DNA of 21,571 nt from Chthonomonadales bacterium (lineage in GTDB: Bacteria > Armatimonadota > Chthonomonadetes > Chthonomonadales > Chthonomonadaceae), in assembly GCA_038217285.1 (NCBI GenBank), contig JBBQPO010000076.1, positions 1-21,571 of the forward strand, in the 5' to 3' direction. Under the pieces are notes generated by a model that was not told where the DNA came from, ran no database searches, and saw only the letters and a program-made list of their open reading frames with translations. Numbering within the stretch: position 1 is the first letter of the stretch; every line of letters begins with the position of its first letter. Made by a program: the position numbers and the translations under genes. This document shows, in pieces, positions 2,363 to 19,674 of this stretch.

Positions 2363-2388
2363 GAGACTAGGGTCAGGAGGGTCCGGCG

Positions 2389-2958: not shown

Positions 2959-2967
2959 AGGGAACTA

Positions 2968-2996
2968 TTGCCCTCCCCTCTGGGTTTGGGTATACT
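2968..2996 (+). promoter_or_regulatory. Sigma70-type promoter for the phosphatase genes
   Basis: TTGCCC (2968-2973), 17-nt spacer, TATACT (2991-2996); GGAGG RBS before ATG 3021. Confidence 0.6.
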
Positions 2997-3020
2997 GTCG
3001 GGGAGGAGAGAACCGCCGCT

Positions 3021-3725: not shown

Positions 3726-3803
3726 GAGAGCGAGCCAGGCCGTGTGAGTTCAGGTGACCGTGCGCGGAGAGAGCAACATCCATTCGGAGGTCTTAACCCA
3801 ACT

Positions 3804-6422
3804 ATGAAACGATCTTTCCACGTGCCCCGCTGGATCGCGCTTGGCGTCGCAGTTACCGGCGGCTGTGTCGGGCTGGCGGCGGCCTGGGGTGGACGACAGA
3901 ATGCAGAACGTCTGCCGCTCTCGACGGGCAAATTCCTGACGCCGCAGGGTACACAGACCGCAGTCGGCAGTTTTCCTGCGAACATGATCCTGAGCCCGGA
4001 TGGGAAGTGGGTCGTCGTCACCGATACCGGCGCGCGCGAGTTTCTCTCCGTACTGGATGCGACCAACGGGCAGTTGGTTTCGCAGATCGCACTTGACGGT
4101 GGTTCCGGTGGACAGAGGCCGGCGCTCTATGTCGGACTGGCGTTCGGGCCGACAGGTTCGGACGGCGCCCTTCTCCTCTACGCCTCTCGTGGTCCCGAAG
4201 ATAAAGTTGCGCTCTATACCCTTGGTGCGACCGGCAAACTGACGGACACCGGGCGCCGCCTGGACGATGCTTCCAGTCTGCCCGTCGAGGCCAAAGCGGC
4301 TCGTCCGAACTTCCTGGCCGGCCTCGCGGTCAGCGCAGATGGGCGGCGCTGTTATGCCGTCCACAACGAAACCAGCGCCTATACCGACTACAAAGGTTCG
4401 GTCAGTGTGATCGACACAGCGACCAACCGGGTACTGGGCAAAGTGACGACGCCCGCGTTTCCATACGCCATCGCCGCGCGAACGGAAGACAAAGGGGATA
4501 CGGTCTATGTCGCAAGCGAGCGCGACGGCGTGGTGTCGGTGCTGAACGTCGCGCAGTCGGACGCGCCTGCCCTTACCCAGGACATCAAGGTAGGCGATCA
4601 TCCAATGGCCCTTCTGCTCGATAAGGCGCAGCGCCGCCTGTTCGTCGCCAACGCCAGCAGCGACGATGTGTCGATCCTCGATACCGACACAAACCGGGTA
4701 ACGCGTACCCTGCCGCTCCGACCTGCGGGCGGCACCCCTCTCCCCGGCATGACCCCGACAGGTCTGGCGCTCAGCCCGGACGAGGCGCACCTCTATGTCA
4801 CGCTTGGGGACTGGAATGCCGTCGCGGTCGTCGATCTGAAGACCAACCGGGTCGCAGGCTATCTGCCCGTAGGCTGGTATCCGACCGCTGTCGTCGTCAG
4901 TTCGGACGGAAATCGCCTCTTCGTCTCCAATGCCAAAGGCGACCAGACACGCAATTCCAACCGACCTTATGGGAAGCGGGACACCTATATCGAGAATATC
5001 CTGGAGGGCACGGTCTCCCTGCTGCCCGTTCCCAAAGCGGAGAGTCTGAAGAGCGGAACCGCGCAGGTGCTCGCCAACAACCGCTTCTCTCCGGATGGCA
5101 AGATCGCGGACGACCCGGCGCGGACGGCGCTGACGCAGAGCGGCATCAAGCATGTCGTCTACATCATCAAAGAGAACCGTACTTACGATCAGGTGTTGGG
5201 CGATCTGCCGCAGGGCAACGGCGACGCGAGTCTGGTGCTGTTCGGGCGCGCCGTGACCCCGAACCTCCACGCGCTCGCCGAGCGGTTCGGCCTCTACGAT
5301 AATTTCTACGACTGCGCGGAAGTCTCCGCCGACGGCTGGAACTGGTCTACTTCCGGCATGACCAGCGAGTATACTGCTCGCAACGTGCATTTCAACTACA
5401 GCGGGCGCGGACGAGGCTACGATTTCGAGGGGGCGACCAATGGCAGTCCGGTCGATCTACTCGGGATGAAGGATGTGGCGGAAGCCCCCGGCGGCTATCT
5501 CTGGGATCAGTGCCGTAAACATGGGCGTTCGTACCGGACATACGGCTGCTTTACGGCCTTCGACGACCTGAAAGATCCAAAGGGCCATCTGCTGGCCCTC
5601 GCCAATACACCCCTGAAGAAGGCGTTGATCGGGCATAGCGACGACAACTTCCTGCGCTTCGACATGAACTATCCGGACAGTGAGGCGTGGCAGCAGCACA
5701 CCGCCATACCCGGTATGATGACAAAGTTCGGCAAATTCGACGCGCCAAGCCGCTATTCGGAGTGGAAACGGGAGTTCGATCAGTTTGTGAAGGAGGGCAA
5801 TCTGCCGCAGTTCGAGATGGTGCGGCTGCCGTGCGACCATACGGCCGGGACGAAGCCCGGATCGCGCTCGCCCCGCGCGATGGTCGCGGACAACGACTAC
5901 GCGGTGGGGCAGTTGGTGGAAGCGATCAGCCATAGTCCCTACTGGAAAGACACCGCCATTTTCGTGCTGGAGGACGATGCCCAGGATGGCCAGGACCATG
6001 TCGATGCTCACCGCTCGATCAACTTCGTCATCAGTTCGCATCTAATACGCGGCACGGTCGATCACCACTTCTACAACACCGACAGTGTGCTGCACACAAT
6101 GGAGGTGCTGCTTGGCCTGCCGCCCATGAACCAGTACGACGCGACGGCCCCGCTCTTCCCCGGTTTCGGCCCGACGCCGGTAAACGCCGAACATTATGCC
6201 GCCCTTCTGCCCACCCAATCGATCTTGGGAGAGATCAACACCGCGACCGCCTATCGCGCCCGCGACAGCCGCCTATTGGACTTTACACAGGCCGACCATG
6301 TGCCCGACGGACTTTTGAATGACATCCTCTGGCATAGTATCCAGGGCGTCAACACCCCGATGCCCGCCCCGCGCCACCTTTTCCGCGTTACCGCCCGCAC
6401 TCAGCGTCGCGATATCGATTAG
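3804..6422 (+). CDS. Secreted YVTN/YncE beta-propeller + phosphoesterase (alkaline phosphatase superfamily) protein
   Basis: Signal peptide from ATG 3804 (GGAGG upstream). YVTN-type repeats (VGDHPMALLLD...LFVANASSDDVSILD; PVGWYPTAV). Phosphoesterase motifs IKHVVYIIKENRTYDQVLGD, EVSADG, EDDAQDGQDHVDAHRS. Confidence 0.9.
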   Translation: MKRSFHVPRWIALGVAVTGGCVGLAAAWGGRQNAERLPLSTGKFLTPQGTQTAVGSFPANMILSPDGKWVVVTDTGAREFLSVLDATNGQLVSQIALDGGSGGQRPALYVGLAFGPTGSDGALLLYASRGPEDKVALYTLGATGKLTDTGRRLDDASSLPVEAKAARPNFLAGLAVSADGRRCYAVHNETSAYTDYKGSVSVIDTATNRVLGKVTTPAFPYAIAARTEDKGDTVYVASERDGVVSVLNVAQSDAPALTQDIKVGDHPMALLLDKAQRRLFVANASSDDVSILDTDTNRVTRTLPLRPAGGTPLPGMTPTGLALSPDEAHLYVTLGDWNAVAVVDLKTNRVAGYLPVGWYPTAVVVSSDGNRLFVSNAKGDQTRNSNRPYGKRDTYIENILEGTVSLLPVPKAESLKSGTAQVLANNRFSPDGKIADDPARTALTQSGIKHVVYIIKENRTYDQVLGDLPQGNGDASLVLFGRAVTPNLHALAERFGLYDNFYDCAEVSADGWNWSTSGMTSEYTARNVHFNYSGRGRGYDFEGATNGSPVDLLGMKDVAEAPGGYLWDQCRKHGRSYRTYGCFTAFDDLKDPKGHLLALANTPLKKALIGHSDDNFLRFDMNYPDSEAWQQHTAIPGMMTKFGKFDAPSRYSEWKREFDQFVKEGNLPQFEMVRLPCDHTAGTKPGSRSPRAMVADNDYAVGQLVEAISHSPYWKDTAIFVLEDDAQDGQDHVDAHRSINFVISSHLIRGTVDHHFYNTDSVLHTMEVLLGLPPMNQYDATAPLFPGFGPTPVNAEHYAALLPTQSILGEINTATAYRARDSRLLDFTQADHVPDGLLNDILWHSIQGVNTPMPAPRHLFRVTARTQRRDID

Positions 6423-6425
6423 GCC

Positions 6426-6503
6426 TTCGTCTGTAACGTGGGCGCTTCCATAGGCCGCTATTGCTAACCCGCCGATGAGGACGAACCGCACGTCATTTTG
6501 TAG
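6426..6503 (-). pseudogene. N-terminal fragment of a nucleotidyltransferase-like gene (AbiEii/DUF6036-type)
   Basis: Reads LQNDVRFVLIGGLAIAAYGSAHVTDE, matching the 'V.FVLIGG.A...HG..R.T.D.D' start of these nucleotidyltransferases. It is cut off by the 3' end of the convergent phosphoesterase gene. Confidence 0.6.
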
Positions 6504-6546
6504 CCGAAAAGGGACGTGCGGATCATTAATGCATACCAACCAACCC

Positions 6547-6599
6547 AGGCCGATGAATCGGCCTTACCGCATCAGGCCGCTCGTTTACGGGCGGTCTGA
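6547..6599. repeat. Two adjacent REP-like palindromes
   Basis: AGGCCGAT-GA-ATCGGCCT (6547-6564) and TCAGGCCGCTCG-TTTA-CGGGCGGTCTGA (6572-6599, two G-T pairs) in a convergent intergenic region. Confidence 0.5.
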
Positions 6600-6611
6600 G
6601 CAGTAGTATGG

Positions 6612-6645
6612 AAAAAGCCCCTCTGTCCGGCGAAGGAAGAGGGGC
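6612..6645 (-). terminator. Rho-independent terminator of the HEAT-repeat gene
   Basis: Minus strand GCCCCTCT...AGAGGGGC stem followed by TTTTT, about 45 nt after the stop at 6690. Confidence 0.75.
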
Positions 6646-6689
6646 CGACAGGCGTTTTGAAGTTCGGGCCATGGTGGCGAAGCATCGGT

Positions 6690-8309
6690 CTACGGCGCCT
6701 GGGGCTGACCGAGGCGGGCGAGTTGGGCCTGGGCAACGTAGGCCACATCGGGGTCGGGGCTTTTCGCGAGATCCTGCAGGGGCTTGCTCGCCTCGGCAAC
6801 GCCCATGTCGCCCAGGGCGACTGCGGCCCAGCGCTGACCGACGGGATGGGCGCTGTCGGCGGCGAGTTTTTTGAGGGCGTCCAGGGCAGGCATGCCCTGC
6901 TGCGCAACGGCCTGCGCGGCGTAAAAGGCGTCGGTGTGGCCGGTCTGCATGGCGCCGATGAGCGCATCGGTCGCCTCCGGGCCGATCTGCACCAGAGCAT
7001 CGCGCGCGACGTCGCGGACATCGCCGTCGCGGTCGCTCAGCGCGCCGATGAGGCCGGGAACGGCGGCGGTGTTGTGGGGATAGCCCAGAGCGGTCGCGGC
7101 GGCGACGCGCAGATCCGTTTCGTTGTTTTCGTTCTTGAGGGCGGCGATCAGCGCCGGGTCCGCTTCCGGCGCGGCGACGCGGGTGAGGGCGTTGGCAGCG
7201 CCGGTGCGAATGTTGTCGTTGGTGTTGGAAAGCGCTGCAATCAGCGCCTGGAGTGCCAGCGGCTGCGTTGGGCCGTTCAGGGTCGGGCGACCGGCATGGG
7301 CGAGCGCCGCGACCGCCGCCGAGCGCATTTTCAGGTCGGGATCGTTGAGGGAGGCGACCAGGGTCTTGATCGCAGCAGCCGAGGCGATCTTGCCCAGCCC
7401 GGACGCCGCCTGAAGCCGCGCCTCCGCATCGGCGTTTTTATCTTTGATCGCCTGAATCAGCGCCGCTTCGCCGGAAGGCGAGGCGATCAACGCGATGGAG
7501 CCGATAGCCACTCGCTGCACCGTCGGCGTATCCGTCTTCAACGTGTCGATCAGGGGCTGGACGGCTCTCGGGTCGCCGATCTTGCCCAGCGCCTCCGCCG
7601 CGCCACTGCGCGAGCCTTCGTCGTTTTTGAACTTCGTAGCGTCTTTCGGATCTTTCTCCGTCAGGATCGTCAGCAGCAGCGGAATGGCGATGTCAGCAAC
7701 GCCCTCTTTCAGAAAGCGCGGACTGCCCAGCACATCTCCTCCAGGACCGCGTGTGCCGGCGTCCCCTTTCATCTTATCGATTAGCGCCTCGACCACCGGC
7801 TTTTTCGGACCGATTCCGTCCGATTCGGTCATCACACGCGCCACGCCCTTGCGCACATTGCCGTCGCCATCCCCCACTCCGCCTATCAACGCGGTCAGGT
7901 TGCCTGTAGCGCTGTAGTCTATCTTTTTGAGAGCGGCGACGGCCGCTGCGCGCACTTTCTTATCGGTGTCTTTCAACAGGTTCAGGCCCTGCTTCACCGC
8001 CATCGAACGGTAGTCCGGCGCATCCTTCTCGGTGCCCATCACCACGCTGGTATCGTTCGCGAGAGAGAGAACGGCATCGACGGCATGCAGCCGAACGCTG
8101 GGATCTTCGCCCGTGATCGAGTCCGAAAACTGCTCGGTCTTGACCAGTTCCAGCGCCGCGTGGCTGCGCGTCGCGTTGTCTGCGCTTCCCATCGCGTCTA
8201 CCAGAGAACGCACGTAGCGACTGTGGTTGACAGCGATGCCGACGACCAGGAGAACGACGACCGCGAAAATCAGATAGTTCAGGTATCTCTTCAAGGACAG
8301 ACTCCACAT
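6690..8309 (-). CDS. Membrane-anchored HEAT (PBS lyase-like) repeat protein
   Basis: N-terminal TM (YLIFAVVVLLVVGIAV) and many repeats of the type R..AA.ALG.IG...AV..LI..L.D.D..VR. Confidence 0.88.
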   Translation of the reverse strand: MWSLSLKRYLNYLIFAVVVLLVVGIAVNHSRYVRSLVDAMGSADNATRSHAALELVKTEQFSDSITGEDPSVRLHAVDAVLSLANDTSVVMGTEKDAPDYRSMAVKQGLNLLKDTDKKVRAAAVAALKKIDYSATGNLTALIGGVGDGDGNVRKGVARVMTESDGIGPKKPVVEALIDKMKGDAGTRGPGGDVLGSPRFLKEGVADIAIPLLLTILTEKDPKDATKFKNDEGSRSGAAEALGKIGDPRAVQPLIDTLKTDTPTVQRVAIGSIALIASPSGEAALIQAIKDKNADAEARLQAASGLGKIASAAAIKTLVASLNDPDLKMRSAAVAALAHAGRPTLNGPTQPLALQALIAALSNTNDNIRTGAANALTRVAAPEADPALIAALKNENNETDLRVAAATALGYPHNTAAVPGLIGALSDRDGDVRDVARDALVQIGPEATDALIGAMQTGHTDAFYAAQAVAQQGMPALDALKKLAADSAHPVGQRWAAVALGDMGVAEASKPLQDLAKSPDPDVAYVAQAQLARLGQPQAP

Positions 8310-8403
8310 TGGGAAAGACTAAAATGGTGCATGGACAGGAGACGACGTCATCTCGAAAACGGTGCAGAAGAGGCGGCAACTGTCAACGACAGTCACCACT
8401 TGC

Positions 8404-8433
8404 AGTATAACATGCCAATCGGACCGTTGTCAA
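8404..8433 (-). promoter_or_regulatory. Sigma70 promoter upstream of the HEAT gene
   Basis: Minus strand TTGACA (8433-8428), 18-nt spacer, TATACT (8409-8404), with an extended -10 TG. Confidence 0.7.
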
Positions 8434-8464
8434 TGGCGGCTCCCCTCCTGCTGTTATCGTGCTT

Positions 8465-10396
8465 TTAAGGCACGGTGTTCACGACATGGAACAGCACCCC
8501 ACCGGTGACCAGACCGAGCACGACCAGCGCAGCGCCCCAGAACTTCCATCGGCGCAGCGTAAAGAGTTGAATCAGCAGCGGCGCTGCAATTAACGCTCCC
8601 ATCGGCAGGGAAACTGCCATCGCCTCCCGAGCCAGCGCGCTGTGTGCACCCGCCTGAGCAGAGACGCCCAGCACGAAGCACATAACGGCCATCAGCAGGC
8701 CACAGGCCAGACGCTCGGCCATGCCGACATTGGCGGCAACCCCGACGAGAAGCAGCATCATCGCCAGCAGTCCCGTCGTCAGGGAAGCGGAAGGGATCAG
8801 TCGTGTCATGGCCTGTGAGACGGAGCCGTTGGTTCCGAATGCAACCACCAGCACCGGCAGGAGCGTCACGAGGTACAACGGCACATACCATTTCGCGATC
8901 TGTCGGAAGGAGGGACGGGAGCGCAGCACGACCAGCCGAACAGGAATCTCGGCGATGCCGGCGCACGACTCAACGCGTACAGTCTCGTTAAACTCGCCTG
9001 TTTCCCAGGTCCGCGCCGAGTGGGCCATCAACGTAATCGTCTGGCGATGCCGGTCGAACGCCGTGGGATGAACTGTCAGCCAGCCAGGCGTAGAGAGAAC
9101 GCGCCCCTCGGCAGGCGTCTCGATGCCCACGACGCGGGCCAGAATTTTGACGGTGCGCGTCTCGCCTTTGAAGACCGTTCCAAAATCGACGCTTTGCGGA
9201 TCGACCAGAAGGCTGGCGTCTTTGCGCCGGAATAACCCGCCGCGAGAACGCTTGACCGGAACGACCGGAGTCTCGGATGGCGTCACTTCCGCGACGACGG
9301 TTCCCGGCCCCTCCCATGTTTGCGGGAGCGGTGCCGGTTCCGCGTGTTCCGGTCGTGCCCAAATAGGGAGCGCGCGGGCGGCAGGAAGGGGCTGCGTGGA
9401 GACGTCGGGGGTCGGAAGCGCCCCTCTGTCCGTCGCGCTGTATCCTGCTGCGGCTTCGCGTTTCATGCTGTCGGTCAGATCGTAATCGGGGACGCGCGGT
9501 TTGGGTCCGTGGCGTTGGGTCAGATCGTAGGCGGCGAGACGGCGTGCGGCGGTCTCTTTTTCTAGCCGCAGCGTGGAGGAGGCCAGGCTCTGACCTTCCC
9601 GCAGACGCAGCACATCGTCCCGGAACTCACCTGCCGTGCGATAGCGGCGGCTCTTGTCACGTTCGAGCGCGCGGTCGAGGATGGCGCGCAGGCCGAGCGG
9701 AGCCTCGGGCAGATAGTCGGTGATCGGAGTCGGAAGCTGGGTTTCCAGCACACGTTTCCAGGAGAACGGATCTTTGACGCGCGTCACCTGAAACGGCCGC
9801 TGTCCGGCGACCATCTCGTAGAGGGTGACGCCGACCGCCCAGATGTCGGACTGGCTGTCGGAGCGGTCCTCTTCCGCGAAGTCCTCCGGAGCCATATAGG
9901 CGTAGGTGCCCGCCCCGCCTGCATAGGCGTTGGTCGCCAGGATCTCGGCCAGACCGAAGTCCACCAGCTTGATTTCGCCATCGCGTCCGATCTGGATATT
10001 GGCCGGCTTGATGTCGCGATGTACGGTCTGCATACGGTGGGCGTAGTCGAGGGCGTCGAGCACCTGCGCGACGATGTCGAGCGCGCGGTCCAGCGGCATG
10101 ACGCCTTCGGCACGCAGGGTCTCCTGCATGTTCTGGCCGCGCACATACTCCATATCGATGACGACCTTGCCCTCGATACGATCAACACCGTTGACACGCA
10201 CGATATTGGGATGGCGGAGGCGATCCATCACCCGCGCCTCTTCCAGAAATCGACGCAGATCTCCCGCCTGCACATCGACCTCTTTCAAGGCGACCTGTTT
10301 GTTCAGGAGCGTGTCTTTGGCGAGATAGACGATGCCGGAGACGCCGTGTCCCAGCACATCCAGTCGCTCATATTTTCCCAGCATTCCCAGTGCCAT
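8465..10396 (-). CDS. Hanks-type Ser/Thr protein kinase with an Ig-like domain and about 5 C-terminal TM helices
   Basis: LGHGVSGIVY, VALKE, HRDIKPANI, DFG, GTYAYMAPE, DIWAVG. Ig/BACON-like segment VDPQSVDFGTV...PGWLTVHP; five hydrophobic helices at the C-terminus. Confidence 0.95.
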   Translation of the reverse strand: MALGMLGKYERLDVLGHGVSGIVYLAKDTLLNKQVALKEVDVQAGDLRRFLEEARVMDRLRHPNIVRVNGVDRIEGKVVIDMEYVRGQNMQETLRAEGVMPLDRALDIVAQVLDALDYAHRMQTVHRDIKPANIQIGRDGEIKLVDFGLAEILATNAYAGGAGTYAYMAPEDFAEEDRSDSQSDIWAVGVTLYEMVAGQRPFQVTRVKDPFSWKRVLETQLPTPITDYLPEAPLGLRAILDRALERDKSRRYRTAGEFRDDVLRLREGQSLASSTLRLEKETAARRLAAYDLTQRHGPKPRVPDYDLTDSMKREAAAGYSATDRGALPTPDVSTQPLPAARALPIWARPEHAEPAPLPQTWEGPGTVVAEVTPSETPVVPVKRSRGGLFRRKDASLLVDPQSVDFGTVFKGETRTVKILARVVGIETPAEGRVLSTPGWLTVHPTAFDRHRQTITLMAHSARTWETGEFNETVRVESCAGIAEIPVRLVVLRSRPSFRQIAKWYVPLYLVTLLPVLVVAFGTNGSVSQAMTRLIPSASLTTGLLAMMLLLVGVAANVGMAERLACGLLMAVMCFVLGVSAQAGAHSALAREAMAVSLPMGALIAAPLLIQLFTLRRWKFWGAALVVLGLVTGGVLFHVVNTVP

Positions 10397-10407
10397 GAAT
10401 TTCTCTG

Positions 10408-11961
10408 CTAATGCCCTGTCACAACCGTTGTTTCGATGCGGTAGAGTTTGTGGTTGTCGATGACGAAGAGGACGTCATCGGCATTGACCTGGATCCGGAC
10501 GGGGGCCTTGAGCCGTGATTTCCCGATGTCGGACCCGATGCGAGTGCCGCTCTTACTGTAGATACGAATGCTTTTGGTGTCGGGGTCGATGGCGAACAGG
10601 TTGCCGTTGGGGTCGAGTGCGAAGTCTGCGCGTGCCGACGGTGCGAACGGCGACGGGCGGCCTGTCGCCGGAAGTTCCGGCGACAGGCTCGGGAACGTAC
10701 CGCCGAGCAGATCCGTCGTGCCGTTGGGCTGCACACGAATGAGATTGCCGCTCAGGGCTGCTACAATGGGGTTGCCCTGACCGTCGAGCAGAAGACAGCC
10801 GTCCTGGACCTCTTTGGGCGTCAGCAGCTTTGGAATCCCATATTTTTGCAGGTCGTAGACCGGTTTCAGAGGCGTGATGATTTTCTCGTCCGGCCCTTTC
10901 TTGTTCATGAACCCACTCGAATAGAGCAGGTAGCCCTCCCCTACCGCAACGACCGCGAGCAGAAGCACCAGGCCGACCAGCAGGCCGTTCGCGCTGTCGG
11001 TCTGTTGCCGGGAACGGTGGGACGTCTGCTCCGGCTCGAGACGGTCGGGGCGCGGTTCCAGGCGACGGGTCGAAGTCACGGGCGCTTCGGCCGGCTCCTC
11101 CTCGTCTTCCTCAAGAGGGCGGCTGCGCATCTGCGTTCGCCACGCCTGGTCAGGATCGGTATCGTCCTCGTCCGTGGTCAGCGGCAGGGTAAACGGAACG
11201 AAATTGCCGTACCGCAGCGTCACGACGGTCACGTTATCGTGCCCGCCATGATCCAGCGCGGCCTGCACGAGTTTTTCACAGACCGCCTGGATATCGGCGT
11301 CACCGGCCAGAATCTGGGCGATCTCGGCATCGCGTATTTCTGAACTGAGACCATCGGAACAGAGGAGAACGGTGTCGCCCTCCTGCAGTGGGACGCGGAA
11401 GATATCGGTTTTCACCTCGGGTCCAAGGCCGATAGCGCGGGTAATACGGTTGCGGAACCGACTGCGCTGGGCCTCTTCGCGAGTCATGCGGTCGGCCAAA
11501 ACCTCCTGCCAGACTTCGGAGTGGTCGTCCGTGAGCTGCCGCAGTTTGCCGGCGCGGAGCAGATAGGCCCGACTGTCTCCCAGATTGGCGACGGTCAGCA
11601 TATCGTCCTTGACGATGGCTGTGACGCAGGTGGTGCCCATCTGCCTCAGGTCGGGCCGCTCGACTTTGCGGGTCGTCCAGACCTTGTGGTTGGCGCGGGC
11701 AAACGTCTCTCGCAGCATCTGCTCGACATCCAGCACGCTGCTCCGGCGATCATGGAGGAATTCGAGGATGGTATCCGGCACTGTCTGCGCCACGATGCGG
11801 GAGGCGATGTCGCCGCCCCCTGTCCCGCCCATGCCGTCCGCGAGGACCAGCAGCGCGTCCAATTGGCTGGAGAGATCGCTACGACGCAGAACCGCGTAAC
11901 TGTCCTGATTGCCGTTGCGCACGTTTCCCACGTGCGTTTTGAATCCGATTGTAAGAGCCAC
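10408..11961 (-). CDS. PP2C-family Ser/Thr phosphatase (PstP/PrpC/Stp1-like) with a TM helix and extracytoplasmic beta-repeat domain
   Basis: RNGNQD, LADGMGG, MGTT, NLGDSRAY, LLCSDGL, GGHDNVT. TM LLVGLVLLLAVVAVGEGYLLY; NHL-like repeats (DFALDPNGNLFAID, RIQVNADDVLFVID). GTG start with GAAGG RBS. Confidence 0.93.
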   Translation of the reverse strand: MALTIGFKTHVGNVRNGNQDSYAVLRRSDLSSQLDALLVLADGMGGTGGGDIASRIVAQTVPDTILEFLHDRRSSVLDVEQMLRETFARANHKVWTTRKVERPDLRQMGTTCVTAIVKDDMLTVANLGDSRAYLLRAGKLRQLTDDHSEVWQEVLADRMTREEAQRSRFRNRITRAIGLGPEVKTDIFRVPLQEGDTVLLCSDGLSSEIRDAEIAQILAGDADIQAVCEKLVQAALDHGGHDNVTVVTLRYGNFVPFTLPLTTDEDDTDPDQAWRTQMRSRPLEEDEEEPAEAPVTSTRRLEPRPDRLEPEQTSHRSRQQTDSANGLLVGLVLLLAVVAVGEGYLLYSSGFMNKKGPDEKIITPLKPVYDLQKYGIPKLLTPKEVQDGCLLLDGQGNPIVAALSGNLIRVQPNGTTDLLGGTFPSLSPELPATGRPSPFAPSARADFALDPNGNLFAIDPDTKSIRIYSKSGTRIGSDIGKSRLKAPVRIQVNADDVLFVIDNHKLYRIETTVVTGH

Positions 11962-12010
11962 GTGCCTTCTTTCAGACCGTTGTCGTATGTTGACCCAAGC
12001 CGTGCGACGT

Positions 12011-12109
12011 CTACTCGCGCTCCCGTCGCAGCATCTGAAACAGCACCAGCAGGAACAGCCCGAACCCGACCGGCAAGGCGATGCGCAACAACGAGAAAAT
12101 CCAGTTCAT
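12011..12109 (-). CDS. Unannotated 32-aa single-TM peptide
   Basis: ATG AAC TGG...GAG TAG encodes MNWIFSLLRIALPVGFGLFLLVLFQMLRRERE. Purine-rich RBS (GAGGAGAAGGGTGA) follows the fhaA-like stop; GC-rich codon usage; fills the operon gap. Confidence 0.7.
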   Translation of the reverse strand: MNWIFSLLRIALPVGFGLFLLVLFQMLRRERE

Positions 12110-12125
12110 GCTCTCACCCTTCTCC

Positions 12126-13406
12126 TCAGCTCCCGCCGACGAAGCGCAGCGTCAGGTCGCCGAGACCGATGTGGTCGCCGTCCTTGAGCGCGGTCGGTTT
12201 GTGAGCGGGCAGGCGAATCCCGTTTAGCGCGGTCAGCGCGCTGTCGCTCAGGCATTCGAGCGTATAGCCGTCGCCATCGTTGAGCAGGCGGGCATGGCGT
12301 GTGGCGATGGAGCGATCCGGCAGCACGACGTCATTGGTCACGCCTCGCCCGATCAGGGTCTCCGAGCCGAGCATCACCTCGTCCACATCCTGTTCGCCTT
12401 CCATGATCATCAGTCGCGCGGTATGGGGACGCAGTCGGCGCGACGGCGGGGAAGAGCTGCCCATGCCGTCCTCGGAGCGCACGGCTGCTGCGCCGCCGTA
12501 GGTTCCCTGCGGCCAGGCTCCGTTCGCGCTTGCGGCCAGGCTCGTTTCGCGTTCGGCGCTCTCGCTCCGACCCTGCTGCTGGAACGTGATCCGTGTCGCG
12601 CCGAGCGTGATCTCATCGCTGTCGTTGAGGACGCGGTTGTCCACCCGTCTGCCGTTGACCTTGGTCCCGTTGGTGCTTCCGAGGTCGTAGAGCGTAAAGC
12701 GGCCAGCCGAATCCATCTCGATGCGGGCATGCCGTTTCGACAACTGCCCGTCGCTTTCGATCACAAGGTCGTTACCGACGCGGGGTGAGCGCCCGATACT
12801 GATGGCTCCTCGCGCGATGGCGAACCGGTGCGGGGGCCGATCCGGGGCGTAGACGATGAGAGCGGCAGAGGCGACGGAGGGCACCGTCCCCTCTTCCATG
12901 TCATGATCGCCCCAGGCGCTGGCGACGGTGCGCTCCTCGAACGGAACAGCGGAAAGCGCCGCGTTCAGAGCGCCGGCCGGCTGCGGGTGCGCGAACTCCG
13001 GCTTCGGTTCCGGAGCGGTGACTTTGGTATCGTAGCGGCAACGGACGCGTACTTTCTCGCGCTTCCCGTTTTCGGCCTCCATCTCCTCGACCTCTTTGAT
13101 GGTGAAATCGAGTGTGCCGCGAATATGATAATGATTCTGCTGGCAGTAGCGGCGGAGCGCCACTTCCAGCTCATCCCGGTCCAGGAAGGAGAGCAGGTAC
13201 TGCTTCTCTTCCTCATCGTGGACGTTGATCTCCAGCACATACTGGTTCGGCACATAGACACGGCTGTCGAAGCCCTCTTTGCGGTGGTCCTCCATTGCGG
13301 CGATAATGCGCCGGAGGATGTCTTTGGGGCGCACATCGTCGCCCCCGCCGAACAGCCCTTCGTACCACGAGCCAAACGACCGATTGATCTTTTCGAATAA
13401 GTCCAT
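12126..13406 (-). CDS. fhaA: FhaA-like protein: DUF3662 domain + two FHA domains
   Basis: N-terminal MDLFEKINRSFGSWYEGLF...VRPKDI...YVPNQY (DUF3662-like). FHA1: IGRS...SKRHARI...DLGSTNGTKVNG. FHA2: IGRGVTNDVVLPDRSIATRHARL. ATG 13406 chosen for its AGGA RBS. Confidence 0.85.
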   Translation of the reverse strand: MDLFEKINRSFGSWYEGLFGGGDDVRPKDILRRIIAAMEDHRKEGFDSRVYVPNQYVLEINVHDEEEKQYLLSFLDRDELEVALRRYCQQNHYHIRGTLDFTIKEVEEMEAENGKREKVRVRCRYDTKVTAPEPKPEFAHPQPAGALNAALSAVPFEERTVASAWGDHDMEEGTVPSVASAALIVYAPDRPPHRFAIARGAISIGRSPRVGNDLVIESDGQLSKRHARIEMDSAGRFTLYDLGSTNGTKVNGRRVDNRVLNDSDEITLGATRITFQQQGRSESAERETSLAASANGAWPQGTYGGAAAVRSEDGMGSSSPPSRRLRPHTARLMIMEGEQDVDEVMLGSETLIGRGVTNDVVLPDRSIATRHARLLNDGDGYTLECLSDSALTALNGIRLPAHKPTALKDGDHIGLGDLTLRFVGGS

Positions 13407-13515
13407 TGCTGTCCTGTCCGTCCTGCATTCTCTGCCATAGCGGAAGAGTACAGAAGGGGCGCATCCCGCCATCTCGCATAGAATTTCGGCGGAGGTTGTG
13501 GGGCTACGTGCCTTC

Positions 13516-13544
13516 ATTATAGTCTATGACGGACTTTCCGTCAA
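13516..13544 (-). promoter_or_regulatory. Sigma70 promoter of the fhaA operon with an overlapping 7-3-7 inverted repeat
   Basis: TTGACG (13544-13539), 17-nt spacer, TATAAT (13521-13516); TGACGGA-ctt-TCCGTCA at 13527-13543. Confidence 0.75.
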
Positions 13545-13607
13545 TCCGGTTGCAGAAAGGTTAGACCCGAGACAGACGATTCTCCGTCGAACCGACGGCT
13601 CCTCATT

Positions 13608-14558
13608 CTACTTCCTATAGACGTTTTTCTGATGCCATGCCAGCGCTTCAGAGGCAGGCGCGTACTGTACCTGCGCGGGAATAAGGAGGCAAACGCCTTC
13701 GGGGAGGTACGCTGCGGCGTTTCTGAGACACGGAGAGAGCAGAATTTTGTAGTCGGCGGTCGCGGTAAACCAGCCTGCATCAAAGCCCCAATGGTGGTTT
13801 TTGCAGAGAGAGATGCCGTTACGCGGATCGTCATTGTGGAAGAGGCCGAATGGCATAATGTGGGCGGCATCCACCAGGTCGCGACCGTCCTCTGTGTGGA
13901 CATTCAGACGACAGACAGCGCACGAATCGTTGTAGAGCGACCGGATTACTTTTGGAAAGAGTGCGTGTCGGACGTAATACCCCGTTTCGTCGTGGTCCTC
14001 CCGAACCTGCTTTGGACGGAATTTACTGTTCGCTTCGGCCTTGAGTTTCTCCGCTTCGTAGTCCAACGGGTTCGAATGCAGACCTGGCTGGACATCCGCT
14101 ACTCCCCTACTGAAATAGCGTTCGAGCAGGAAAATTCTCAGAGTGCTACGTGCAGCCCGATCCTGCAAGAGCTCCCAGAGGTCAGATGCCAGAACCGCGC
14201 CGTCCGTTTCCGCCATCAACTGCCGGATAGACGGGTTCATACCAAGCGACTGCGTGGAGACAGGAAACCCATTTTTGATCAGTTCCCAAAACCCCTCCTG
14301 CATCATAAATCGGAAAGGATTAGCTATTCGTTCCTGCCACGTATCTTTCGTCACCAGTACGCGCCAGTAGTCACGGAACGCAATGATTAGATTCAGCGTG
14401 AGTCCAATGCGATTTTCCACAATGCGTCCGCGTTCCATCTCGTCCAGCACGGCAAGCAGGAGAATAGGCTTGTGAGGCGCTCCACCCCACCGTGGATTCT
14501 GGTTGCGGTGCAGATGGCCGAAAATGCCGAGATATTCGCTTAACCGATCTATGGGCAT
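13608..14558 (-). CDS. HNH endonuclease with an N-terminal SBD-like domain (putative modification/phosphorothioate-dependent type IV restriction enzyme)
   Basis: N-terminal APHKPILLLAVLD and NPFRFM...FWEL. C-terminal HNH: CAVC...VDAAHIMPF...DDPRNGISLCKNHHWGFDAG. Confidence 0.85.
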   Translation of the reverse strand: MPIDRLSEYLGIFGHLHRNQNPRWGGAPHKPILLLAVLDEMERGRIVENRIGLTLNLIIAFRDYWRVLVTKDTWQERIANPFRFMMQEGFWELIKNGFPVSTQSLGMNPSIRQLMAETDGAVLASDLWELLQDRAARSTLRIFLLERYFSRGVADVQPGLHSNPLDYEAEKLKAEANSKFRPKQVREDHDETGYYVRHALFPKVIRSLYNDSCAVCRLNVHTEDGRDLVDAAHIMPFGLFHNDDPRNGISLCKNHHWGFDAGWFTATADYKILLSPCLRNAAAYLPEGVCLLIPAQVQYAPASEALAWHQKNVYRK

Positions 14559-14580
14559 AGGTCGTAATCAGATGGCGGGT

Positions 14581-14769
14581 TCATTTGGGAGTGTGGCGAT
14601 TCATGTATATGGTGACGATGGTACCGATTATCAGGATCAAGGCCAGAGCGCCGAGGCCGGTATAGAACCACATTAGCGGCCAATGCATCACGGCAAACAG
14701 AATGACCGTTCCAATCAGACAAACTATACCGACGGAAAGCATCCGTTCAGGGGATGAATGGCGCATCAT
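14581..14769 (-). CDS. Small 2-TM membrane protein
   Basis: 62 aa with two hydrophobic helices; GAGGT RBS. Confidence 0.65.
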   Translation of the reverse strand: MMRHSSPERMLSVGIVCLIGTVILFAVMHWPLMWFYTGLGALALILIIGTIVTIYMNRHTPK

Positions 14770-14853
14770 TTACCTCTCCCGCTCCGGTACGGCCGTTTTC
14801 TGTTTTCTCTGCCGGTCGCACCACCGCCCTCTTATCCAGGCTTTTCATAGGTG

Positions 14854-15231
14854 TCAATGGCCGCTCGTCATATTGGGACTGCCGGCAGGTGCGCCCACGA
14901 CCTTTTTGTAGGTTACGGTCAGTCCTTTTGTGTCCAGGTTGTCTAACAGCGTTCTATCACTTGTGAGCTGATAGTGGTAACGGGAGGGCACTGAGCCGGA
15001 CAGAGACAGGGTTCCCCAGAACAACCGCCATGCGCCTGAACGTTCCGGCTGCTGTGGATCACGCATCGTATACGTATGGTCGGATCGAAGTTCCAGCCAG
15101 CTTTGACTATTTTCTATATTTTGCCACCGGCCTACAGCAAACGCGGGCCACTGCGAGGTATAGAGGAGAATGCTCACCGCGACCACGAAGAAGACTGTCC
15201 ACGGAATCCAGAACGACCTTTTCTTTTTCAT
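14854..15231 (-). CDS. Small membrane-anchored/exported hypothetical protein
   Basis: MKKKR followed by a TM helix, then a beta-rich segment (VGRW...LELRSDHTYT...SGAW); TATAAT (15254-15249) and AGGGGG upstream. Confidence 0.7.
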   Translation of the reverse strand: MKKKRSFWIPWTVFFVVAVSILLYTSQWPAFAVGRWQNIENSQSWLELRSDHTYTMRDPQQPERSGAWRLFWGTLSLSGSVPSRYHYQLTSDRTLLDNLDTKGLTVTYKKVVGAPAGSPNMTSGH

Positions 15232-15295
15232 GCTTATGCCCCCTAAACATTATACCCGCAGGGCCAGCATCTTGCGGTCGATGGCCTCTTCGTCG

Positions 15296-15523
15296 TCACC
15301 AGCGGACAATAGTGACGGCATCCAGCTTCAGCGTCCCGACGACCTGGGTGAACTCACAGTCGGGGTCGTTCCAAAACACGATCCGATGGCGTTCCTTCGT
15401 GAAGAGCCGCTGCAAACCACTCACGATCTGCGTCGTGTCCATGTCTGCGTGACCAAAAAGGCTCGCACTTTGCCCGCCTGTCGCGTCCGACGTTTCCTGC
15501 AAACTGTCGTTTAGATCCGCCAT
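15296..15523 (-). pseudogene. pglZ: Truncated BREX-1 PglZ (N-terminal fragment only)
   Basis: MDTTQIVSGLQRLFTKERHRIVFWNDPDCEF...LKLDAVTIVR matches the PglZ type A N-terminal motif RIVFWxDPxxEF. Stops after 75 aa, whereas intact PglZ is roughly 800+ aa. Confidence 0.85.
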
Positions 15524-15527
15524 CGGG

Positions 15528-16055
15528 TCAGGGCTTCCGCTTTACCGAATGGGGCGCGAGTTTTCGGTTCCATGAATCCATGTTCACCACCACGACATCG
15601 AATTGGGAAGCCCAGGGCGCCTGGAACGGCCCCGGCAAAAAACAGAGGCGCTTCAATTTGTCCTGAACGGTCAGCAGCATGGCCGCATCAAGGCGCGCTA
15701 ATCCGAGAAAGACGATGTACCGAATTTCATTGGTCGGAGCACGGTGGGCAAGCGCCAGATAGACGAGCGTATCTTTGAGTTTGGGAGCCAGTTCACGCGA
15801 ATAGAGCGTACCGGATCGCATCTTCTTGCGGAAGGAATTGCGGTTATGGGCAACATGAGGCGCGGGAATTTTGCTGTTTTCGGGGTCTTTGGCCTCTATC
15901 AGCCATGTTTGCAGGGCAGATTGAACAATAAAGTCCACCCGCTTCATCTGCACATGGCCCATCCCGTGGGTGTTATCGTCGTCAAACCGATCCGGAGTAA
16001 AGGCGTCGTCAAACGTGAAGATCAGATCCCCTTCGTCGATCTCTGTCGGCATCAT
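15528..16055 (-). CDS. Hypothetical protein with a PD-(D/E)xK nuclease-like motif; partner of the ATPase
   Basis: KRVDFIV-x7-WLIEAKDP (D...ExK); ATGA overlap with the upstream ATPase stop. Confidence 0.7.
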   Translation of the reverse strand: MMPTEIDEGDLIFTFDDAFTPDRFDDDNTHGMGHVQMKRVDFIVQSALQTWLIEAKDPENSKIPAPHVAHNRNSFRKKMRSGTLYSRELAPKLKDTLVYLALAHRAPTNEIRYIVFLGLARLDAAMLLTVQDKLKRLCFLPGPFQAPWASQFDVVVVNMDSWNRKLAPHSVKRKP

Positions 16056-17059
16056 TCGCTCCCCAGGGCGCGCTCGATTTCCAGGTCATAGATGCGCTCG
16101 AACTGCGCCGCGATCAGGTTCGGGCTGAGTTCATTATAAGAGTTGGCGGGATGCACTCTCACCGAGCCGTCTTTCTTGTTGCGCTCCATTGCGAAAAGGC
16201 GCAGGGTGTCGTCGGCTCTCTTCTGAAGATCCAGCTCCTTCAGGATGATGTAGTTGTGCGTGGAGAGGAAGATCTGTACGCCACGCTGCGTCAGTTCGAA
16301 TAGCAGGCTGATGACTTCGTCCATCAGCGAGGGATTCAGGTTGGTTTCGGGTTCGTCCCAATACAGGACGCTTCCGCTGGTGAGCGATCCATTGGCGATC
16401 AACTGATAGAGCAGCGCCAGTTTGCGCCATCCTTCGGCGACTAGATGCATCTCAATACGCCCATTTTTGCCCGTCAGATAGAACCGTTCTCCCTTCACTT
16501 CAACATGGCCTTCCAACTGGTTAGCGATTCGTTCCAGCAAGGGCGCTATATCACCTTGTGCTGCTTCGCGAAGTGTGGGTATGAACGCAAGGGAAAGAAT
16601 ATCGCGATGCGTCTCATCGAAATCAATATTGCGTTGATCGTAGAGCGACAGAAATCCGACCGAATGAGCTAGCATATCCTTGACAGGGATAAAGACAGGC
16701 TGAGTTACGTTGTCCCAGTGAACACCGTCGTCAAAAGCCGATCTATAACCGTCGAGTATTTGGATTGCGAATTTATAAGGCGTTCCATTCCAGGTTGCCA
16801 CAGGAGTTGATATGTCGGATCGATTCTCTTGGTGAAGCAGAGCATCCAGAGTTTCCGGGCGAAATATAGCCAGTAATCGCTCACCGATTTGCTGTCCGTC
16901 GCGTGATGGAAATTGCGCCTTTTGCATGGCATAGAGCAGTTTCATGACATGCGTTTTGCCAGTCGCATTTGCACCTACCAAAACATTAATACCGGGCACA
17001 AAATCGAAATCTGCCTTGCGGAAGACGGTGAAGTTATTGATGTGAAGCTTCTCAAGCAT
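16052..17059 (-). CDS. ABC-type ATPase (AAA_15/AAA_21-like, defence-associated)
   Basis: LHINNF start, Walker A GANATGKT, signature-like VAEGWRK, Walker B/D-loop LYWDEPETNLNP, H-switch STHN; no TM; AGGAG RBS. Confidence 0.9.
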   Translation of the reverse strand: MLEKLHINNFTVFRKADFDFVPGINVLVGANATGKTHVMKLLYAMQKAQFPSRDGQQIGERLLAIFRPETLDALLHQENRSDISTPVATWNGTPYKFAIQILDGYRSAFDDGVHWDNVTQPVFIPVKDMLAHSVGFLSLYDQRNIDFDETHRDILSLAFIPTLREAAQGDIAPLLERIANQLEGHVEVKGERFYLTGKNGRIEMHLVAEGWRKLALLYQLIANGSLTSGSVLYWDEPETNLNPSLMDEVISLLFELTQRGVQIFLSTHNYIILKELDLQKRADDTLRLFAMERNKKDGSVRVHPANSYNELSPNLIAAQFERIYDLEIERALGSE

Positions 17060-17181
17060 TGTCTTTGTTCTCCTGCCTGGATAGGGAAGACAAGTCGTTG
17101 CTCATGAGCGACCAATAGGAGTGGCAACGATGTTCTACCCTGGAATTAGGCAATGTGCATTGATACGGCTGCCATTTCAGA

Positions 17182-17304
17182 TCAGTCATCGCCGCCCCCT
17201 GTCACCGCTTTGACTTCTGCGAGGAGATCGCCGAATTTGCCGTAGTTGACCTTCACGCCATCGCCGCAGTCGAGACTTATGCGCATGTCGGCATAGTGAC
17301 GAAG
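17182..17304 (-). pseudogene. pglX: C-terminal 40 codons of the BREX-1 methyltransferase PglX (BrxX)
   Basis: Minus strand reads LRHYADMRISLDCGDGVKVNYGKFGDLLAEVKAVTGGGDD*, the hallmark PglX C-terminus (consensus LRHYAD.RI.LDLDDGVKVNYGKFGDLLA.VKA.TG). Not present in the ORF track. Confidence 0.9.
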
Positions 17305-17606
17305 AAGTCGGCGAGCAGAAGGCTGTGTTTCAGAGTCGCCGCCAGAACAGCCTGAGTCGCTACAGCAGGCGAACCGTCACGAACTAGCTCCCATAAGTCG
17401 GGCTTCATCGTGGAAAGACGATGGCGAATATACTCCGCGAAGGTCTTGGCCGTACTTGCGCTGCGCTTTTGGAGAACATTCTCATTCACAATCGCATTTT
17501 GCCACGCCGCGTCGTCTACGCCTTCGAGCAGAAGCGCTGCTATGAGGCGACTCTCCGCGACTTTGAGAGAACCTTTGGTCAGATTAGCCGAGTAGAGATT
17601 TTTCAC
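17277..17606 (-). pseudogene. brxA: Truncated BREX BrxA (DUF1819)
   Basis: From GTG 17606: YSANLTKGSLKVAESRLIAALLL...WQNAIVNENVLQKRSASTAK...IRHRL...LWELVRDGS...LAATLKHSLLLADF, then out-of-frame pglX sequence. About half of a normal BrxA. Confidence 0.88.
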
Positions 17607-17986
17607 GTACTGTGGGGCACCTTCGTAGAGCCGGTAAAACCTGAACTTCTGTTGTCGCAGCAAGTCATACCGCATAATCTTGGCAAACGTTTGGCTTCCA
17701 GGTTGAACTGGCATGTGGATCGGATCGAGGTCGTTCATCTCAGTTCAGATGTCCCACAAGATTGGACGCTGGCGTGGAGAATTCCTCCTCTATCCGGCAA
17801 TCAAAGAGGAGGATCTGCCACCGTGGTCAGTGCATCTGTGATTTGCGAGGCATAGCGCTCGGCCAAGTCCAACGCGCTGAAGGAAATGCACAGGGAAACT
17901 ACTCACAAGCATCGAAGAATACCTGAAATTCCTTCAGCACGAACAACGGCGACAGTTGGCATAAACAGACGCATCCCGGAGAATAT

Positions 17987-19024
17987 CTACTTTCCGAAGG
18001 CTGATTTCAGCCCATCGGCCGCAAACATTTCGGCGTCTTTGGCCTTGTCAACGACGGCTCCCATGCCAAAGAACTCATGAGTCACGCCGGTATAGTTTCG
18101 GTACCGCACCGCGACGCCTGCCTGTTTGAGCTTGTCGGCATAGGCTTTCCCTTCGCTCATGAGAGGATCGATCTCATCGGTGATGACGGTCGCCGCCGGC
18201 AGCCCTTTGACGTTTCCCTTGAGGATCACGAGATAAGGATTTTTGGTGTCGGCCGCGCTTTTGACGGTGTTTCGGAGGAACCAGGCCATCATGGGCTTGT
18301 TTAGCGGTTTGGCATTGGCATTGATCTGGTAAGAACGCGTGTTCAGGTTGCTGTTGGCGACCGGATAGACCAGCACTTCATAGATGGGCATCATGCCTTT
18401 GCGGTCGCGCGCCATCATGCAGATCGCGCTGGCCATGTTACCGCCCGCGCTCTCCCCCATGACAGCGACGCGCTTCGGATCGCCCTTCATCTTTCCTGCG
18501 TTCTTCATCACATACTGCAGTGCGGCGTAACAGTCTTCATGGGCGGCGGGAAACCTGTGCTCTGGGGCTTTGCGATACTCGACTGAAACGACCATGGCGT
18601 TCGTGAGGTTGACCATGGCGCGTGGGGAGGCGTCGTAGGTGTCCATGGTCGCGATCACCCATCCGCCGCCATGAATGTAGAAAATTACCGGAAACGGACC
18701 CTCTCCAGCCGGAGTATAGATACGGACGGGGATCGGGCCGGCAGGGCCGGGAACCGTCGTGTTCTGTACGCTTCCCACAGGCTCGGGATCGGTGCTTTTG
18801 CCCTGTTTTTTAAGCAGCATCTTCACAGCGTCGGCCGGTGTGGGCTGCTTGCGCGCTTCCTTCGCAGAAAGCTGGGGGATGGGTTTGCCGTGCAGGGCTC
18901 CCAGTTCATCCAGAACGGCTTTCATCTGTGGGTCGGGCTTCGGTGGGGTTTGTGCGTGGGCCAATGGTGCAAGGCAGGCGCTCAATATCAGCGCGGGACG
19001 AAGAAGGGAACGGGTAGCTTTCAT
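17987..19024 (-). CDS. Secreted alpha/beta hydrolase (HSL/GDXG-family esterase-lipase)
   Basis: Signal peptide (..PLAHA-Q), YIHGGGWV, EYRKAPEH, GESAGG nucleophile elbow, DPL, HEFF; GAGGAG RBS before ATG 19024. Confidence 0.93.
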   Translation of the reverse strand: MKATRSLLRPALILSACLAPLAHAQTPPKPDPQMKAVLDELGALHGKPIPQLSAKEARKQPTPADAVKMLLKKQGKSTDPEPVGSVQNTTVPGPAGPIPVRIYTPAGEGPFPVIFYIHGGGWVIATMDTYDASPRAMVNLTNAMVVSVEYRKAPEHRFPAAHEDCYAALQYVMKNAGKMKGDPKRVAVMGESAGGNMASAICMMARDRKGMMPIYEVLVYPVANSNLNTRSYQINANAKPLNKPMMAWFLRNTVKSAADTKNPYLVILKGNVKGLPAATVITDEIDPLMSEGKAYADKLKQAGVAVRYRNYTGVTHEFFGMGAVVDKAKDAEMFAADGLKSAFGK

Positions 19025-19232
19025 CGTAAACGATCTCCTCGTGACGGACAGAACAGGCGTTGGACACCCATACGTCACCGGAGGACGCTCAATACTACTG
19101 ATCAGTTCCCTACAATATGTCATTTAACCCGGCGGCGCGGCAATGCCGCACCAATCGGGAGGAGATAACGACCTTGTGGCGCATATTACGGGTGCTTCAT
19201 GAGGCGGTTGTGTTGTTAAAATAGCAGGCATG

Positions 19233-19262
19233 AAAAAGGGGTTAGAGAATATTCTCTAACCC
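19233..19262 (-). terminator. Rho-independent terminator after tRNA-Pro
   Basis: Perfect 24-bp palindrome GGGTTAGAGAATATTCTCTAACCC (19239-19262) followed on the minus strand by CTTTTT. Confidence 0.8.
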
Positions 19263-19278
19263 ACTTAACACTCTATGA

Positions 19279-19350
19279 TCGGGGTGACTGGATTTGAACC
19301 AGCGACATCTCGCCCCCCAGACGAGCACTCTACCACTGAGCTACACCCCG
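19279..19350 (-). tRNA. tRNA-Pro(GGG), CCA not encoded
   Basis: CGGGGTG acceptor stem, D arm TAGCTCAGTGGTAGAGT, anticodon arm CTCGT-CT GGG GG-GCGAG, T arm GGTTCAAATCC, ending CACCCCG-A; 72 nt. Confidence 0.95.
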
Positions 19351-19363
19351 GCGAAACCTTGCT

Positions 19364-19393
19364 ATTATATCGCGACTGAGGGCGTTCTGTCAA
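19364..19393 (-). promoter_or_regulatory. Consensus sigma70 promoter of tRNA-Pro
   Basis: TTGACA (19393-19388), 18-nt spacer, TATAAT (19369-19364), 13 nt upstream of the tRNA. Confidence 0.85.
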
Positions 19394-19674
19394 GGTCGAA
19401 TGTGCCGACGGCCATTTTGCCATGCGTCTCCCACGAACTGACTGCCGTCCCTGTCGAAGAGGCCAGTGCCAAAAAACTGCAACCGGCTCGCGGTGAAGAA
19501 GGTATTGAGATTGAGAGTGGCGTACTGGTTTAGCACGCAGACGTAAAGGATGGTTGCCCAGAAAGGCAATGACCCTCTGCGGGCAACGGACACGGTCGAC
19601 GACACCCCGGTTCCTACACAGAGACCCGCAGGCAGACCGCGACAGGCAGCCTGGGGAGAAGGAGAGTTCACAGC

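Follow-up and report, generated by a model that had tools for sequence, protein, structure and literature searches.

The window analysed here, a 21,571-nucleotide stretch from a Chthonomonadales bacterium (contig JBBQPO010000076.1), carries two coupled genes that very probably constitute a member of HEC-02 (Hma-embedded candidate 02), borne as cargo in the pglX-pglZ slot of a type 1 bacteriophage exclusion (BREX) locus that has since been largely deleted. The genes, encoding an ABC ATPase (HEC-02A) and a small partner with a predicted PD-(D/E)xK fold (HEC-02B), are adjacent on the same strand, as HEC-02 requires. Direct reading of the sequence shows the HEC-02A stop overlapping the HEC-02B start by 4 bases, confirming the two intact, ATGA-coupled genes claimed by the preliminary description of this DNA (Table 1). 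HEC-02A aligns over its full length with the PADLOC profile PDLC04213 (residues 1-333 on profile positions 1-335 of 337, E 1.1e-101), and HEC-02B likewise with PDLC04227 (residues 5-174 on positions 9-179 of 184, E 8.3e-46). The PADLOC matches of HEC-02B are confined to HEC-02 models, ten named HEC-02B and one named HEC-02A, and the predicted structures of both proteins agree with the assignment.

The module is already known, being catalogued in PADLOC-DB, with one representative shown to defend Escherichia coli. According to the available portion of the describing preprint (Payne, Hughes, Fineran and Jackson, bioRxiv 2024, 10.1101/2024.01.29.577857), HEC-02 was discovered inside Hma systems and comprises an ABC-type ATPase and a NERD-like PD-(D/E)xK protein, HEC-02B, bearing a (D/E/Q)xK motif. 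E. coli MG1655 deltaRM expressing one representative per candidate was tested with BASEL and classic phages; the HEC-02 representative protected the cells from phages, and both genes were needed. The preliminary description had proposed an undescribed system, had taken the lack of a PADLOC match as favouring novelty, and had named a match to a described system as refuting it. Given full-length HEC-02 matches for both proteins and the phage tests reported in 2024 in that portion of the preprint, the claim of novelty therefore fails. Its reading of the pair as a defence module stands, both for the two-gene ABC ATPase/PD-(D/E)xK kind, with the anti-phage activity published there, and for the position in a decayed BREX slot.

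HEC-02A matches the Pfam families AAA_21 and AAA_15 and contains a Walker A motif (GANATGKT, residues 29-36), a signature-like motif (AEGxRK, residues 208-213), a Walker B/D-loop (WDEPE, residues 234-238), and an H-loop (TH, residues 267-268). When 41 homologues are aligned, the corresponding columns show either no variation or at least 90% conservation, in line with the earlier statement that the ATPase motifs are preserved; a Q-loop was not identified in the protein. Foldseek comparison of the AlphaFold2 (AF2) model (pLDDT, the predicted score in a local distance difference test, 91.9) returns PtuA (Septu, retron I-A), SMC, Rad50, cohesin SMC1A, and the OLD protein of retron Eco8 at E 6e-14 to 3e-12. 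These top rows are all ABC-type heads, which places the predicted fold in the ABC clade rather than among AAA+ proteins. By sequence, the HEC-02A profile reaches solved structures only through P-loop and Walker-B-level matches. The ATPase search of the protein library lists 1347 clusters at E <= 0.001.

HEC-02B carries a D-x12-E-x-K motif formed by D41, E54, and K56. Across 98 family sequences, D41 and E54 never vary and K56 is conserved in at least 90%. In a 24-sequence alignment, one member of which is a paralogue of 22% identity, none of the three residues varies, supporting the D...ExK motif first reported for this 175-aa protein. In the AF2 model (pLDDT 96.1), core strands two and three bear the motif residues. 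VIA-align superposition of the model gives an Upx chain (Z 8.0), BstEII (Z 7.0), and an XisH-like protein (Z 6.2) as best rows, followed at Z 5-6 by Cdn1, Can2, N.BspD6I, Card1, CdiA-CT, FokI, McrC, NucS, Cfr10I, EcoO109I, PspGI, and Hna; restriction-endonuclease-fold proteins make up most of the 23 rows at Z >= 4.8. On this enrichment and the conserved motif, HEC-02B has a predicted restriction-endonuclease-like fold. This fold, together with the lack of any AriB, PtuB, or HNH match, upholds the earlier view that the partner is neither a TOPRIM nor an HNH protein. In a library of 1.84 billion proteins, 273 representative clusters belong to the family at E <= 0.001, almost all of 160-190 aa. 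Pfam and NCBIfam contain nothing that matches HEC-02B, and its family profile retrieves no sequence from the PDB at E <= 10.

Several of these measurements count against placing the partner in HEC-02. Foldseek of the HEC-02B model against the PDB yields no match at E <= 0.001, so that the fold check suggested earlier gives no significant hit, although its sub-threshold rows are enriched in PD-(D/E)xK nucleases. The VIA-align scores of Z 5-8 are middling by the tool's own scale (Z < 8). HEC-02B is only 35-44% identical to its homologues outside the genus in the genome_contigs collection, including the proteobacterial proteins that score highest with PADLOC. The Pfam NERD family (PF08378) is touched by just 4 of the 98 family members, with a best E of 0.016, and other PD-(D/E)xK families are touched about equally (DpnII by 6 and SduA_C by 5 of the 98). 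The NERD label is thus not confirmed by sequence for HEC-02B, whereas this protein does show the D41...E54-x-K56 motif along with the predicted PD-(D/E)xK fold.

The BREX genes on both sides of the pair are reduced to stubs, as had been claimed, in the order brxA (5' half)/pglX (tail)-HEC-02A-HEC-02B-pglZ (5' stub). The brxA stub aligns with Pfam BrxA (residues 49-147 on profile positions 3-101 of 184) and with PADLOC BrxA (positions 14-114 of 209, E 1.4e-37). Residues 23-60 of an open reading frame (ORF) at 17182-17376 (-) correspond to the last ~35 residues of PglX (PDLC02521 positions 1139-1171 of 1174, E 5.8e-10), and the same ORF matches the end of a type IIG restriction endonuclease-methyltransferase model (positions 1164-1199 of 1205, E 1.5e-13). 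Downstream, residues 28-74 of an ORF at 15296-15523 (-) align with the start of PglZ (PDLC02547 positions 1-45 of 855, E 2.2e-9), the homology beginning at residue 28 of a frame whose listed start is 15523. Since a pglX remnant lies on one side and a pglZ remnant on the other, the pair occupies the pglX-pglZ slot, as the preliminary description proposed. BrxB, BrxC, and BrxL have no match among the 16 window ORFs scanned, most of pglX and pglZ is missing, and the window locus accordingly lacks the complete type 1 set brxA-brxB-brxC-pglX-pglZ-brxL.

The deletion junctions are real and no assembly artefact, because an independent metagenome contig bridges both. This 4472-base contig (depth 23), obtained in another study's run (X2), spans 14500-17675 unbroken at ~98% identity; its differences from the window are 51 substituted letters and, at 14820 and so outside the pair, a single 3-base gap. 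Both junctions are also bridged by contigs of a further run (X1), possibly the source sample. Contigs of two other runs (X3 and X4) fit the window to ~15302 and ~17314, the places of the pglZ and pglX junctions, and then continue unlike it; they may represent related populations that still have full pglZ and pglX. Separately, a contig of the X2 population exchanges 106 bases at 17828-17935, between the brxA start and an alpha/beta hydrolase gene, for 1207 other letters, an insertion or replacement.

Twelve homologous HEC-02B loci were confirmed in genome_contigs. Closest to the window are those of a Chthonomonadaceae metagenome-assembled genome (MAG) of the same genus (87% identity) and then of a Fimbriimonas MAG (44%); all others are proteobacterial (35-39%). 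The ATPase gene precedes the partner with a 4-base overlap in 10 of the 11 loci that retain upstream sequence and abuts it in the eleventh (own ORF calls); the overlapping upstream gene encodes ~330-370 aa and is HEC-02A in all nine related loci scanned (Table 1). BREX loci surround HEC-02 in four cases: the window relic, contig C258 of the same genome, and the Magnetococcales loci L009 and L015. In a bolder version of our proposal, the pglX-pglZ slot would be a recurrent landing site for HEC-02 across phyla, from Armatimonadota to Magnetococcales (L009, L015). At L016, two ABC-ATPase candidate systems, HEC-01 and HEC-02, stand side by side. The same-genus MAG (L006) ceases to resemble the window ~45 bases past the HEC-02B stop; a relic context common to both was considered and rejected, as no pglZ stub is detectable there. 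The L006 contig, starting inside HEC-02B, covers only the downstream side.

Among relatives of the window's genome, HEC-02B has matches in 9 of 40, including 1 of 4 same-genus genomes, at identities from 87% to 24%; so patchy a distribution is as expected of mobile defence genes. HEC-02A lies beside the match in 8 of 11 further loci of these relatives. PglX or PglZ was found beside the HEC-02-like genes in none of the 11 (E <= 1e-12), and the defence-related neighbours there are a PLD-helicase, a type I methyltransferase fragment, a C5 methyltransferase, and a Lon-like match to the BrxL C terminus. One HEC-02B homologue (L024:2335-2832, contig C48 of genome G017, E 1.2e-29) lacks a neighbouring HEC-02A call at E <= 1e-12, which may mean that the partner is orphaned or that the ATPase gene is disrupted.

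Table 1. Features of the window and of related HEC-02 loci, with their positions and the evidence for each
Locus	Feature	Position	Strand	Evidence or remark
Window	HEC-02A (P0001), 335-aa ABC ATPase	16052-17059	-	PADLOC, Pfam, AF2 model, Foldseek
Window	HEC-02B (P0002), 175-aa protein, predicted PD-(D/E)xK fold	15528-16055	-	PADLOC, AF2 model, VIA-align, motif
Window	ATGA stop/start overlap joining both genes	16052-16055	-	+ strand letters tcat
Window	brxA stub, N-terminal half, ends a few codons past the deletion junction	17277-17738	-	Pfam, PADLOC
Window	pglX C-terminal tail, about the final 40 codons, in a different frame from the brxA stub	17185-17314	-	PADLOC
Window	pglZ N-terminal stub, ~47 codons then stop	15296-15442	-	PADLOC PglZ PDLC02547
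Window	Lower-GC island, GC 0.49-0.59 (flanks 0.61-0.66)	13100-19400	.	Composition profile
Window	HNH_2 protein, 316 aa, just downstream of the relic	13608-14558	-	Pfam, NCBIfam, PADLOC
Window	125-aa ORF, hydrophobic N terminus, adjoins the pglZ deletion junction	14854-15231	-	ORF call
Window	Signalling gene run	6690-13517	-	Pfam, PADLOC
C258 (L005)	Second HEC-02 pair	5944-7480	-	HEC-02A E 7.2e-88, HEC-02B E 3.3e-11
C258 (L005)	PglXI	7493-8788		
C258 (L005)	BrxH-type helicase	3284-5986		
C258 (L005)	PglZ	1560-3317		
L009, Magnetococcus MAG	Intact type 1 BREX			BrxB-BrxC-PglX-(HEC-02A-HEC-02B)-PglZ-BrxL
L015, Magnetococcales contig	PglZ directly after HEC-02A/B			
L016, Magnetococcales MAG	HEC-01 pair	8190-10012		2.6 kb downstream of the HEC-02 pair
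L010, L014	mad3-like ATPase			Within a few kb of HEC-02
L007, L008, L013, L017	No defence neighbour			E <= 1e-15

The genome from which the window derives (459 contigs, 6.2 Mb, 95% complete) holds a second, divergent HEC-02 pair on contig C258, whose HEC-02B is 26% identical to that of the window. This pair is flanked on one side by PglXI, truncated at the contig end, and on the other by a BrxH-type helicase with PglZ after it, the arrangement of a type-3-like BREX. Two divergent pairs in one genome might be used for specificity tests. On contig C186 of the same genome (L018:7234-11026, +), a weakly matching PglZ-like protein of 788 aa (E 4e-7) is followed by a short BrxL of 482 aa (E 9e-126), and 2.3 kb upstream lies a C5 DNA methyltransferase gene; these genes may mark a further BREX-related locus.

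HEC-02 may be self-sufficient, a reading that we rate somewhat less likely than not: the orphaned pair may have outlived BREX, be kept by selection, and still be active, and if it is, its sensing would be independent of BREX proteins. Comparison of HEC-02B with its counterpart in the same-genus MAG over 100 shared codons gives a synonymous divergence (dS) of 0.78 and a nonsynonymous divergence (dN) of 0.077; the resulting dN/dS of 0.10 suggests purifying selection and favours maintenance. The X2 population, ~1.6% diverged, keeps the relic architecture and has only substitutions across the pair among the differences listed, a further 35 falling outside that list, where a nonsense change in the pair could lie. 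All invariant family residues are retained.

It is unlikely, in our judgement, that the pair is instead a decaying relic, intact merely because the BREX deletions are recent and with its promoter and function lost. The deletion stubs on both flanks fit such decay, and other results speak against continued activity as well. The dN/dS value includes the period before the BREX deletions. In the intact Magnetococcus locus, the end of pglX overlaps the HEC-02A gene (own ORF calls), which suggests co-transcription with BREX, and in the window the BREX genes upstream of HEC-02A are gone. A sigma-70 scan, which may misfit this phylum, detects nothing promoter-like within the 122-base spacer that precedes HEC-02A (upstream of 17059 on the - strand), and over 14500-18100 its promoter and terminator counts do not exceed those of shuffled sequence. 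The sequencing runs listed as holding this DNA include no RNA run. Against decay stand the retained residues, the X2 population, and the dN/dS value, together with two observations on HEC-02 elsewhere: four of nine unrelated loci have no defence neighbour at E <= 1e-15, and the HEC candidates were chosen as also common outside host systems, as the accessible text of the preprint describes (10.1101/2024.01.29.577857). Should the orphaned pair indeed be self-sufficient, it could be compared within one organism with the embedded copy on C258, whose type-3-like BREX is apparently intact.

Membership in another ABC-ATPase system, be it PARIS, Septu, AbiL, PD-T4-4, or Menshen, is very improbable. 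HEC-02A does have partial matches to AriA (E 3.4e-21), AbiLi (7.3e-18), NsnB (2e-15), PD-T4-4_A (4.5e-13), and PtuA (2e-10), and PtuA has the closest fold to it among solved defence ATPases. These matches, and that to GajA, are limited to P-loop or Walker B parts, the PtuA model covering just residues 2-44, and trail the HEC-02A model by 80 orders of magnitude. The partner, for its part, matches no AriB, PtuB, AbiLii, or other partner model, only HEC-02, and its predicted fold is PD-(D/E)xK rather than TOPRIM or HNH. The earlier conclusion that the pair belongs to neither PARIS nor Septu is thus sustained.

A housekeeping DNA-repair pair, with a RecF/Rad50-like ATPase, a NucS/Hjc-like nuclease, and no defence role, is hardly credible: some database homologues of HEC-02A are named 'DNA recombination protein RecF', its predicted fold resembles Rad50 and SMC heads, and NucS and Hjc appear in the weaker structural rows of HEC-02B, but NCBIfam RecF/Rad50 scores fall far under their cut-offs (27.8 against 172 bits), the distribution is patchy, the genes lie in a low-GC island and in the four BREX settings described above, and phage protection by the family is published in the portion of the preprint available (10.1101/2024.01.29.577857).

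Most probably, a type 1 BREX once held the HEC-02 pair as cargo in its pglX-pglZ interval. One deletion would have removed the 3' half of brxA, brxB, brxC, and most of pglX, and another most of pglZ and brxL. By analogy with PARIS and Septu, and given the conserved catalytic-type residues, the HEC-02A ATPase may act as infection sensor and regulator that licenses the nuclease-fold HEC-02B to cut nucleic acid, which would halt phage replication; nuclease activity of HEC-02B is accordingly putative. For a predicted HEC-02A/HEC-02B complex, the scores of 0.23 and 0.29 stay under the mark of 0.32; obtained without controls, they are evidence neither way. Searches of the literature for later work on the HEC-02 mechanism returned nothing beyond the preprint and papers counting HECs with PADLOC.

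As a discovery, the pair carries little weight, HEC-02 being catalogued and the embedding of ABC-ATPase/nuclease pairs in BREX being already in print in the accessible parts of the cited papers. Its value lies in a clean natural case in which embedded cargo outlasts its deleted host system and an independent metagenome confirms the junctions. The pair also extends the range of HEC-02 to BREX type 1 and type-3-like loci, and to a genome whose closest named relatives are Armatimonadota MAGs.

An HNH endonuclease gene shares the lower-GC (guanine-plus-cytosine) island of ~6 kb with the BREX relic and HEC-02. The 316-aa HNH_2 product matches NF045808 (phosphorothioated-DNA-binding restriction endonuclease) over residues 26-315 at 80 bits, under a cut-off of 180, and the PADLOC 'HNH' model at E 2.5e-11; it may be a modification-dependent nuclease of the same island. 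Pfam, PADLOC, and NCBIfam return nothing for the 125-aa ORF beside it. The signalling run encodes a HEAT-repeat protein (539 aa), a Ser/Thr kinase (643 aa), a PP2C phosphatase (517 aa), and a double-FHA protein (463 aa) with an FhaA N-terminal domain. The kinase scores E 1e-68 against the PADLOC PD-T4-6 and mad6 models, which probably reflects its generic kinase domain alone.

Among known systems, Septu and retron I-A resemble the pair through PtuA, one of the closest solved folds (Foldseek E 6e-14 to 3e-13); by sequence, PtuA meets the HEC-02A profile at E 2e-9 through the P-loop alone. PtuB is an HNH nuclease, whereas HEC-02B has another predicted fold, no HNH motif, and no PtuB or HNH match. 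PARIS follows the scheme proposed for the pair, an ABC ATPase sensor with a separate nuclease effector; its AriA model matches HEC-02A in part, and it is likewise BREX-embedded and Ocr-triggered according to the available sections of two sources (10.1101/2024.01.29.577857; PMC12839542). Its effector AriB is a TOPRIM (DUF4435) protein, in contrast to the PD-(D/E)xK fold predicted for the window partner, which matches no AriB model at E <= 0.01 and no Pfam family; the window ATPase has 335 aa, against 464 aa in solved AriA chains.

OLD-ABC ATPases paired with HNH, PD-(D/E)XK, or PIN nucleases occur in BREX and related loci of 594 taxa, and the available text reads these dyads as backup or suicidal effectors (PMC12839542, NAR 2026). 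The window is likened to the OLD-ABC + PD-(D/E)XK dyads by context, not by OLD-family assignment. Anti-defence proteins such as Ocr, which inhibits BREX, have been proposed as triggers of embedded ABC-ATPase systems (10.1101/2024.01.29.577857); the idea of a guard against anti-BREX proteins, raised for this pair in the preliminary description, is therefore a hypothesis already in print, as far as the accessible text of both sources extends (10.1101/2024.01.29.577857; PMC12839542).

HEC-02 itself is the closest counterpart. The pair shares with it the gene order of ATPase then small partner, full-length hidden Markov model matches, a predicted ABC fold, a predicted PD-(D/E)xK partner with an ExK motif, and embedding in a DNA-modification-based defence system. 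It differs in its host, which is BREX here (a type 1 relic in the window, type-3-like on C258) and Hma for the original HEC-02 in the portion of the preprint available, in the large-scale deletion of the window's host BREX, and in a genome whose closest named relatives are Armatimonadota MAGs.

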